Below are positions 61,053 through 64,000 of a stretch of 64,000 nucleotides of DNA, piece after piece. Positions within the stretch are counted from its first letter, which is position 1. Each line of letters starts with the position of its first letter. The DNA comes from Candidatus Colwellbacteria bacterium (GTDB lineage: Bacteria; Patescibacteriota; Minisyncoccia; UBA6257; Colwellbacteraceae). A model generated the notes under the pieces. That model was not told the DNA's origin. It worked only from the letters and a program-made list of their open reading frames with translations, and made no database searches. Position numbers and translations under genes: made by a program. The stretch lies in the NCBI GenBank assembly GCA_028710275.1, contig JAQTUL010000004.1:11646-75645 (forward strand), given 5' to 3'.

Positions 61053-64000
61053 TATGTCCGATATTTCATCTTTTATGGAAGTAGATAATTATAAGAAATT
61101 CTTTCCTCATCCCCCAGGAGGAATGGAAGTAAAAAGAACGGTGAAGAAATCCGTACCAAAGGAGATTATCTTCGCTGATAGTGACGATAGTGAAGAAGAT
61201 GAGAAACCGGAGTTTATTGGAAAGAAAAGGGTTCTTAAGGAAATTGTATTTGAATCATCAGATGATGATAGTGGAAACGAGACGGATGATATCACGGTTG
61301 ATTCCGAAAAGGAGATTTTCGAATTCTCAGATCCAGATCCTATTTTCGGATTGCGTTTAGTTAAACCGTACACTCTTTACACTCACCAGATCGAGGCGAT
61401 TCATTGGATGAAGAAGATTGAAAACTCAAATCCAAAGAGGTTGAATATGCGCGGGGGGATTTGTGCCCTTTCTCCAGGATTGGGAAAATGTCTTCGTCCA
61501 GATACACTGGTTCTTCTATTAAACGGAACCATAAAAAAAGCGTGTGATGTTATCGTAGGAGATTTTCTCCTTGGTGATGATAACACACCGAGAAAAGTTC
61601 TTTCGGTTACCACAGGAAAGGATGAGATGTACAGAATTAATCAGAATAAGGGTGAATGGTATGAAGTAAACAGTGAGCATATTTTATCTCTCAAATTTTC
61701 AGGTCATAAAGGGTACTATTGGAGTAAAAACCATTTTACCCTTACATGGTTCGATATTAAAACGTTGAATCTTCATAAAAAGAATTTTAGTGTGATGTCT
61801 GACATCACACGATATAGAGAAAATACATTCCCATCCAAAGACGATGCTTTTACAGCGATGATGAAATTTAAATCGTTATTGAGCCCTATTGAATATAATA
61901 GTTCTACACGTAGACATATGCAATATTCATGGATTAAATCGGAAAACAAATATGTTATTCATTATTGCGATAATGAAAAAATGCGAGTAAAATCATTCTC
62001 TGTATCCGATAATATCCCTCTAAAATCGAAAGAAGAGGCGTTCGAATCTATGACGAAATTTAGAGATACCATTTCAGATGATAATATCATCGATATAGAG
62101 GTTCATAAATATCTCAAACTGAATAAATCGGTTCGAGAGCATCTCAAAGGATTCAAAGTTGGATTTGACGGGTGGGAAGATAAAGATGTACCAATCGACT
62201 CGTGGATGATTGGATATTGGCTAGGAGATGGAACTTCCGCGAATTGTGGAATAACAACAGATGATAAAGAGATTGTAGATTATTTTACTAATAATCTCGG
62301 TAAATATGGGTTGACTTTATCAAAAAAAGGATATATTAATTACACTATAAAATCTGAAGGAAAGATTGGAAAGGGTCGTAATAAGTTTCTCAACTGTCTT
62401 AGAAAAACTAACATGTTGAACAATAAACACATTCCTAATGAATATCTTATAAATTCTAGACGCAACAGATTGGCTCTATTAGCTGGTCTTATCGACTCTG
62501 ATGGATATGTGAACGACGGGTGTTGTGAAATTGTGCAGAAATCGTCGAAACTTGCAGAGAATATAGTGTATCTTTGCCGCTCTCTTGGATTTAACACTCA
62601 AGAGACTATCGTCCAAAAAGAATGTGTTAATAACGGTGTTTGGAATTTCTATCATAGAATTGTATTTAGTGGACAGGGAATGGAGGATATCCCGACGATT
62701 CTTCCTCGTAAAAAATTTAGTGAGAGAATGCAAGTAAAAGATGCTCTTGTTACATCGATCGATGTTGAACACGTGGGGTATGGAGATTATGTAGGATTTG
62801 TTATCGATGGTGATAGACGATTTTTATTAGGTGATTTTACTGTTACACATAATACTTGTGTGTTTGCGAGTCTATGTATGACAGAATCTCAAAATCCCAT
62901 CGAATCACTTCAACGATCATTTCCTAAAGATATCGCAAACATGATCGACGGGTATGTTGTGTCACACACGTATCCGAATCTTGTGATTTGTTCCAAGACG
63001 GTTGCGTATTCATGGAAAAAAGAGATTTCAAAGTTCTATGGAGATTCATGCCCTTACTTCTATATGCATAGGGATTCTCTGAAGAAGAACTTCGATCTTT
63101 TGACATATGATACTATCAAGGACTACAAGATTATCATCACCACATATGAGACAGTTATGGGTGTTGCCAATAAAAATAAAGTATATGATAATCAATTCAG
63201 TCTCGATCAGTTTAATCGTCGTGCCGGAATCAAGGCGTCGAGAAAACCATCACACCAGGATTGTATCAAAGCGGTTGGAGGTATGTTGTTGTTTAAGACG
63301 CCATGGAACCGTATAACAGCGGACGAGTCACATCGCTTCGCAAATCCCACATCATCAACTTTCTATGCGATGATGGCTTTGTGGGGTGAAAAGAAGTGGA
63401 ATCTCAGTGGTACTCCTCTCCGTAACTATTCATCGGATCTCTATTCACAGTTTAGATTTAACGGATACGATAAGATCATCCTATCAAAACAATTTAACTA
63501 TAGCGAGTACGAGCGTGGACGAATGATTGACTTCACTCTATACAAAACATATGAGGATGCAGGTATAATCCTTCCACCAATTACACGCCATAAGATTGAA
63601 ATAGTTCTTGATGGAAGAGAAAAGGAGATTTACGATTATTATCATAGTAGTATGAAACAGGTGTACAACGGATTTCTTGTAGGATCGTATGGTTTCTCTA
63701 ACGTGTTGACTCTCTTTCTTCGTCTACGACAGTTGTGTGTCGTACCGTACACTATTCTCGCGGAGAGTTCGAGAAACTACAAGGGAAAAGATGACGAGGA
63801 ATACACACTGTCACAGAAGATTCTTGATGGTATGACCGGTGGACTTGCTAGCTGGGTCAAGGATAAGATGGGAAGCGCGGGGATTGAATCGGCCAAAATG
63901 AAGGCTCTCATCTCTACATTGAAATCTTTCAAGAAGGGTGAAAAGACTCTCGTTTTCACATCTTTTAAGAAGGTGATTGATATAGCAGCTATTGCGATGG
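61053..64000 (+). CDS. SNF2/DEXH-family helicase (D6/VETF-small-subunit-like); intein-containing; N-terminal frame break; 3' end beyond the window
   Basis: Frame-0 ORF 61053..61421 (acidic N-terminus, '...LVKPYTLY') and the downstream frame reading 'THQIEAIHWM...GLGK|intein|TCVFASLCM...ITADESHRF...LSGTPLRN...LVFTSF' (SNF2 motifs I, II, III, V). The downstream frame is open to 64000. Confidence 0.7.
61489..62853 (+). mobile_element. intein (455 aa, LAGLIDADG endonuclease) inserted in the SNF2 GLGK|T motif
   Basis: Starts 'CLRPDTLVLLLNGT', carries 'MIGYWLGDGTS' and 'LLAGLIDSDGY', and ends 'FTVTHN|T'. Confidence 0.75.

Follow-up and report, generated by a model that had tools for sequence, protein, structure and literature searches.

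An intact SNF2-family ATPase gene, probably of a giant virus, with a PI-SceI-type intein inside its Walker A motif

Near the 3′ end of a 64,000-nucleotide stretch of DNA (contig JAQTUL010000004.1, hereafter the window, that is, the whole stretch analysed), deposited as part of a metagenome-assembled genome (MAG) of Candidatus Colwellbacteria, lies the first part of a gene for an SNF2-family helicase with an intein in its Walker A motif. The question raised by this locus is whether the gene is also broken by a one-nucleotide frameshift at 61377..61387, in the motif-Q region, as was proposed in a first-pass annotation, and, further, what kind of intein it carries and to whose genome it belongs. 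The reading held here with high confidence is that of one intact SNF2-family ATPase gene of a giant virus, without any frameshift, in which a 455-amino-acid (aa) class-1 intein of the PI-SceI type separates the Lys from the Thr of Walker A. The features of the gene and of its intein are the following:

61054..64000, + strand: SNF2-family helicase precursor, 5′ 982 codons, a single open frame running past the end of the window
61054..61488, + strand: N-extein, in which an acidic tail at the N-terminus is followed by the Q-motif region KPYTLYTHQIEAIHWM and by GLGK (codons 61477..61488), the first half of Walker A
61489..62853, + strand: intein of PI-SceI type (Hint domain and LAGLIDADG homing endonuclease), 455 aa, residues 146-600 of the open reading frame (ORF)
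61489..61704, + strand: N-terminal lobe of Hint, blocks A and B, intein aa 1-72, with Cys1 and Asn61-x-x-His64
62200..62238, + strand: LAGLIDADG motif 1 (SWMIGYWLGDGTS), with GYWLGDGTS; Asp247 aligns to Asp218 of PI-SceI (HMMER, 1dfa)
62425..62427, + strand: Lys313, upstream of LAGLIDADG motif 2, corresponding to Lys301 of PI-SceI
62470..62511, + strand: LAGLIDADG motif 2 (LALLAGLIDSDGYV); Asp338 aligns to Asp326 of PI-SceI, and LAGLIDSDGYV is identical to PI-SceI
62746..62853, + strand: C-terminal lobe of Hint, blocks F and G, ending in FTVTHN
62854..64000, + strand: C-extein, opening with the Thr (ACT) that completes GLGKT and carrying DESH and SGTP as motifs II and III; motifs IV-VI are past the end of the window

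The frame that opens with the ATG at 61054 (and not at 61053, the start initially given) contains no stop in the 982 codons to the end of the window and reads ...FGLRLVKPYTLYTHQIEAIHWMKKIEN..., with 52 and 113 stops in the two other frames over the same span. The identification of the product as an SNF2-family helicase was borne out by Pfam, in which SNF2-rel_dom (PF00176, 1.9e-24) covers ORF residues 111-898, across the intein. The search of a protein collection returned a protein of 1111 aa (P0001) that is 100% identical to the window SNF2. This is NCBI MDD4930920.1, ‘MAG: SNF2-related protein [Candidatus Colwellbacteria bacterium]’, from a contig of 83.9 kb; in the public annotation, therefore, the gene is already a single one without interruption.

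The window SNF2 was aligned with eight orthologs taken from further assemblies (Logan, ENA, JGI; 46-87% identity in the alignment), which makes nine sequences in total. In the N-extein, L108, Q112, E114, A115, I116, W118 and G142-K145 are invariant, and in the C-extein T601, D757, E758, H760 and S785-P788. Thus motifs I, II and III of the N-terminal ATPase lobe (GLGK/T, DESH and SGTP; a slash marks an insertion point here and below) are invariant in the orthologs. The C-terminal helicase lobe lies beyond the end of the window and was found through P0001, with a precomputed match to Helicase_C (PF00271) and the sequence QAERRVWRIGQ. The public SNF2 protein starts at Met8 (61075), with the in-frame ATG at 61054 upstream of it. 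A similar extended N-terminus is present in the ortholog P0002 (MSLSSLFSENLQME...), and for this reason the true start may be at 61054.

The intein had been placed at the Lys/Thr junction of Walker A with a length of 455 aa, and this placement is correct to the residue, as indicated by the Pfam domains, the boundaries and the empty orthologs. The junctions are SPGLGK/CLRPDT... and ...FTVTHN/TCVFAS, so that the intein begins with Cys1 (Cys146 of the ORF) and ends with His454-Asn455, followed by Thr+1. In the DNA, the spliced site of the window gene is GGATTGGGAAAA/ACTTGTGTG, and an example of a synthetic empty site is CCAGGATTGGGAAAAACTTGTGTGTTTGCG. Three Pfam domains are located inside the intein, that is, Hom_end_hint (PF05203, 1.1e-16), Hom_end (PF05204, 2.4e-9) and LAGLIDADG_3 (PF14528, 1.3e-6).

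The sequence and fold hallmarks of class-1 inteins are found in the window copy. The nucleophile at position 1 is Cys1, block B contains its His (Asn61-Ser-Glu-His64), and the C-terminal His-Asn is followed by a residue of the Cys/Ser/Thr set, T601, which is invariant in all SNF2 orthologs. The Hint fold is indicated by PF05203 and by an AlphaFold (AF2) model which matches PI-SceI and other intein structures, and excision restores GLGKT, in agreement with homologs that lack the intein. In an alignment of 24 family inteins, the residues C1, N61, H64, H454 and N455, involved in splicing, are invariant, and the C-terminal lobe shows Y434, G436, F437, F450, V452, H454 and N455 without variation. 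The model, made from the 24 family members, reached a predicted local distance difference test score (pLDDT) of 92.3 and a predicted template modelling score (pTM) of 0.82. Its top Foldseek matches are crystal structures of PI-SceI (E about 1e-24, template modelling score [TM] 0.63-0.70), and further matches are other intein endonucleases and I-DmoI.

The endonuclease domain contains two LAGLIDADG motifs, each with an acidic residue at the catalytic position (D247 and D338). In the family alignment, G242 and W244-G246 are invariant around motif 1, with D247 nearly so, and N312-I315, L331-G333, D336 and G339 are invariant around motif 2. By sequence, the intein matches PI-SceI at 3.8e-11 (phmmer). 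The PI-SceI residues D218, D326 and K301, to which D247, D338 and Lys313 correspond, are the catalytic ones. All the sequence requirements of class-1 splicing and of LAGLIDADG catalysis are present, and both activities are predicted on this basis.

According to the proposed mechanism, the precursor of SNF2 and intein would be translated whole. Cys1 would perform an N-S acyl shift, the hydroxyl of Thr+1 would then attack the thioester, and the cyclisation of Asn455 would be followed by ligation of the exteins, which would restore GLGKT and yield an active ATPase. The freed intein would be a LAGLIDADG homing endonuclease. In co-infecting relatives, it would cut those alleles of this gene that lack an intein, and the repair would copy the intein in.

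The alleles of the close relatives are polymorphic at the insertion site. The site is occupied in the window gene, P0002, P0003, P0005 and P0006, and empty in P0004, P0007 and P0008, where the insert is precisely missing and the sequence reads GLGKT (91%, 79% and 71% identity over the matched extein, respectively, in the protein search). The closest ortholog, L001 (Logan ERR12387309; 91% identical), of which the DNA was compared, is an empty allele, GGATTAGGAAAA/ACGGCGGTA. The inteins of P0002, P0003 and P0005 are shorter (320-357 aa) at the same site: the stretch of endonuclease core that separates the LAGLIDADG motifs is for the most part deleted, and the Asp of motif 1 is lost (GYWLFNTKKN, GYLLGKGKTS and GYCLGQGRTL). 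Complete inteins are present in the window gene and in P0006. Such a mixture of alleles in close relatives, some full, some decayed and some empty, is what a homing cycle would be expected to produce.

The relation with PI-SceI, the VMA1 intein of Saccharomyces cerevisiae (PDB 1vde, 1ef0, 1lwt), is evident in several characters. In both, a LAGLIDADG endonuclease splits the Hint domain, the first residue is Cys1 and the last two are His-Asn. LAGLIDSDGYV in motif 2 is identical, the catalytic Asp/Asp/Lys residues are aligned, and the host is an ATPase that is interrupted in its nucleotide-binding region. On the contrary, the host of PI-SceI is subunit A of the V-ATPase and not SNF2, its +1 residue is Cys and not Thr, and the identity of the two inteins is 16-19%. 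A further difference is the tandem pair of beta-beta-beta-alpha modules that separates block B from the endonuclease in the window intein.

The GC content of the intein is 34.6%, that of the exteins 39.3% and 40.5%, and that of the whole window 36.8%; the intein is thus slightly more AT-rich.

In order to place the intein among its relatives, the best 120 of 2747 protein-search matches were scanned by BLAST with the N- and C-terminal lobes of the intein. Among the 130 family inteins of this survey, 112 are located exactly at GK/T or GK/S of Walker A, and VTHN/T or VTHN/S is found in nearly all copies. According to the precomputed Pfam domains of the matches, the hosts include SNF2, AAA+ (CDC48-type), PIF1, SMC, Lon-type proteases and ResIII/DEAD helicases. 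In P0010, P0018, P0023, P0050, P0011, P0072 and P0113, one and the same motif has been invaded more than once: some of these have two family inteins in one P-loop, three residues apart (G/SGK/S), and others have two inteins back to back (...FTVTHN/C...).

The clustering of inteins in P-loops, their apparent movement between unrelated P-loops and the involvement of Nucleocytoviricota have been published (PMC4760082; PMC10710043; PMC5784728). The window intein resembles the inteins known from P-loops in giant viruses and in Anaeramoeba (Gallot-Lavallee et al. 2023, PMC10710043; Novikova et al. 2016, PMC4760082) in its insertion in Walker A, in the non-homologous ATPases that serve as hosts and in the link to Nucleocytoviricota. 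It differs in that the SNF2 host allele and the two-module variant are without description in the cited P-loop intein literature. In a survey of 2018, the viral inteins that reside in helicases are entered as KOG1123, KOG2548 and KOG0947, and ‘SNF2’ is absent from its main text (PMC5784728). The inteins of DNA polymerase B and RNA polymerase in mimivirus-like viruses (PMC5871332, PMC2245910) are similar in residing in essential information-processing genes of giant viruses, and the Rpb1 of the window has two inteins; they belong, however, to different intein families. Conclusively, the intein is an ordinary, apparently complete addition to a known and abundant family of giant-virus P-loop inteins. 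Slightly new are its duplicated internal module and the occurrence of two related inteins in two P-loops of one genome.

The duplicated module occupies the following positions:

61705..61893, + strand: extra module, copy 1, intein aa 73-135; strands 75-79, 82-89 and 94-102 and helix 117-129 in the model
61894..62085, + strand: extra module, copy 2, intein aa 136-199; strands 146-149, 154-161 and 164-172 and helix 181-192 in the model

Both copies are predicted to fold as beta-beta-beta-alpha. In most members of the family this module, about 60 aa long, is present once, after block B and before the endonuclease. Two tandem copies were found in the window SNF2 intein, P0006, P0013 and P0014, all with GLGK/T hosts; the duplicate is missing in 10 other members, and the second intein of the window (19664..20686) has zero copies. 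The region between the N-terminal lobe of Hint and the endonuclease is the position of the DNA-recognition region of PI-SceI. Since the position of the modules matches it, they probably add DNA contacts, and a DNA-binding role is plausible. A model of the module alone (pLDDT 79.7) has as its top PDB match the tandem AP2 repeat of Plasmodium PfSIP2 (6sy0), a weak and non-significant match with E 9e-3, probability 0.75 and TM 0.24, so that a relation to AP2 is a hypothesis.

Some points weigh against the reading of a complete, homing intein in an intact gene. Splicing and cleavage are both predicted from conserved residues alone. The assignment of the extra module as AP2-like is weak, and an AP2 domain gave no Pfam match in the module even at E up to 10. 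No co-conversion tract was found against L001, as the DNA identity in the 60 nt that flank the insertion point on each side is 68-72%, compared with 80% overall; this lower identity near the site does not support recent homing. Finally, no second assembly of the exact sequence was found by exact protein look-up, by exact DNA match in genome contigs or in metagenome contigs with an optional extra base, and therefore the base calls at 61370..61390 rest on one assembly and the orthologs.

The missing co-conversion signature against the closest empty allele is also what would be expected if the intein were fixed and domesticated, still splicing, with an endonuclease that no longer homes. Under this explanation, precise loss from an essential P-loop would be hard, and the intein might act as a post-translational switch of the ATPase. 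The decay of the endonuclease in related alleles points in the same direction; retention or function of P-loop inteins has been argued (PMC4760082), and the RNA-polymerase inteins of Bodo saltans virus (BsV) have been described as fixed and without an active endonuclease (PMC5871332). However, the window copy has both LAGLIDADG motifs, the catalytic Asp and Lys residues intact and an endonuclease core of full length, unlike P0002, P0003 and P0005. Moreover, empty alleles exist in near relatives (up to 91% extein identity), which indicates that the intein is not fixed in the lineage. Domestication is thus considered unlikely, and an intein equipped for homing is preferred.

A more far-reaching proposal, which we regard as rather improbable, is that the SNF2-resident branch duplicated an AP2-like DNA-binding module and thereby lengthened or retargeted its homing site. 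Such an event could explain how one intein family passes between the Walker A loops of unrelated ATPases, of which two genes of this genome are an example, and could also turn the family into a weapon used by giant viruses that co-infect. For Bodo saltans virus, it has been proposed that intein and intron endonucleases play a part in the competition of giant viruses during co-infection (PMC5871332). The variants with one, two and zero copies of the module form a natural series for the evolution of target recognition by homing endonucleases.

As for the origin of the contig, the deposited label is that of a MAG of Candidatus Colwellbacteria, a bacterium of the Candidate Phyla Radiation (CPR), and it is carried by the public proteins MDD4930920.1 and MDD4930722.1. 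Among the products of the window itself are a fragment of an RNA polymerase of the Rpb1 type (domain 5, 4.6e-39), a member of Hsp70 (1.9e-231) and a protein with poly(ADP-ribose) polymerase (PARP) and WWE domains; together with the four inteins, this gene content points to a giant virus. A 68%-identical SNF2 ortholog is located on the IMG/VR contig GVMAG-S-3300013100-88, a giant-virus MAG. MDD4931402.1, of the same MAG accession series, appears among the marseillevirus and iridovirus matches of a published BLAST table (PMC11936420), and the SWI/SNF2 helicase is a class III core gene of NCLDV (nucleocytoplasmic large DNA viruses; PMC2245910). The contig is most likely a mis-binned giant virus (Nucleocytoviricota, perhaps mimivirus-like). 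The public record is thus probably in error, in its binning or its taxonomy, and the CPR label may mislead taxonomic or host analyses.

The opposite explanation, in which the gene belongs to the CPR bacterium and the insert is a bacterial SNF2/HepA intein, has in its favor the NCBI names of P0001 and P0015 and the existence of such inteins (COG0553; 15 in PMC4760082, Table 1). The latter share with the window intein the host family, an SNF2 superfamily II ATPase, and come from a different domain of life. Against it stand the eukaryote- or NCLDV-type Rpb1, Hsp70 and PARP-WWE proteins, together with the giant-virus ortholog, the published matches and the core-gene status mentioned above. A bacterial origin is thus very improbable, and the gene is attributed to a giant virus.

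The PARP-WWE protein is encoded by ORF 12153..13301, which combines a WWE domain with a PARP catalytic domain, a pairing typical of eukaryotes that would not be expected in a bacterial MAG. The early-promoter octamer of mimivirus, AAAATTGA, is present at 60989, about 58 nt upstream of the ATG. It occurs 4 times in the window against 9.7 expected and, not being enriched, was dropped as evidence for mimivirus affinity; therefore, no closer placement within the giant viruses is claimed.

With regard to the frame break that had been reported in the motif-Q region, the base on which it depends is not in the sequence. The site is as follows:

61375..61396, + strand: site of the claimed break, with the unbroken codons L-Y-T-H-Q-I-E; exact sequence CTTTACACTCACCAGATCGAGG

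This 22-mer is present once in the window. The 11-mer quoted in support of the break (TACAACTCACC) has no match in the 64-kb window on either strand, and the real letters at 61377..61387 are TTACACTCACC. Insertion of one A after 61380 or 61381 regenerates, word for word, the translation that had been given, PYTLYNSPDRGDSLDEED followed by a stop (LYNSPDRGDSLDEED followed by a stop), which identifies the break as one mis-copied base, that is, a transcription error. An A-rich slippage site, the other element of that claim, is equally absent: the sequence at the shift point, CTTTACACTCACCAG, has no run of at least 4 bases, and the sole homopolymer of this length in 61341..61420 is TTTT at 61343. 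The assembled reading within 61340..61420 includes TACACTCACC.

The comparison with orthologs, which had been suggested as a check, showed that eight of the eight are in frame through KPYTLYTHQIEAIHWM and that none is split into two genes. The codons TAC ACT CAC CAG are identical in the DNA of L001, an independent assembly. Sequencing error, pseudogenising indel and programmed slippage, the three causes that had been offered, are all unnecessary because the gene is uninterrupted in the window, in MDD4930920.1 and in every ortholog. A real one-nucleotide indel, sequencing error or programmed frameshift splitting the gene at 61377..61387 has solely the first-pass transcription in its favor and, in view of the absent string, the frame open over 982 codons, the lack of a homopolymer or slippery heptamer, the uninterrupted annotation and orthologs and the exact effect of the phantom A, its probability is negligible. 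The intact gene requires no special explanation.

Apart from the SNF2 gene, inteins were found in two other genes of the window:

19664..20686, + strand: paralogous intein of 341 aa in a small P-loop ATPase ORF (19490..21379), IIGKPG/C...THN/TGKST; Pfam Hom_end_hint 5e-18
36241..41190: ORF of a C-terminal fragment of Rpb1, with inteins at 36757..38175 (473 aa) and 38185..39822 (546 aa), both starting with Ser

The intein of the small ATPase is inserted three residues upstream of the GK/T register. Its identity to the SNF2 intein is 47%, with BLASTP E-values of 3e-69 for aa 200-455 and 1e-17 for aa 1-72, and the N-terminal lobe of Hint (aa 1-72) is also 47% identical. A recent hop within the genome between these two P-loop inteins is not supported, the 47% identity being no closer than the 42-52% to family members elsewhere. 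The spliced extein of the second ATPase (288 aa) has generic, sub-threshold P-loop matches only in Pfam, and that it may be an A32-like packaging ATPase is a guess made from size and Walker A motif.

The two Rpb1 inteins are separated by three residues, inside GEPTTQM/TLN/TFHLAGVS, a motif conserved in the trigger loop of Rpb1. The second of them ends atypically, with Ala-Asp instead of His-Asn. Both match the SNF2 intein weakly (E 2e-4 or worse). Of Rpb1, the ORF contains no more than the portion that starts at about domain 5, and the gene may be split or have an intron upstream. With four inteins in three essential genes, two of them related and placed in different P-loops, the window is a compact test case for the spread from P-loop to P-loop.

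Directly upstream of the SNF2 gene and on the same strand, there is an ORF of 930 aa (58110..60902). Its first 780 residues are without a Pfam match, and its C-terminal part (residues about 788-915) is a class-I methyltransferase domain.

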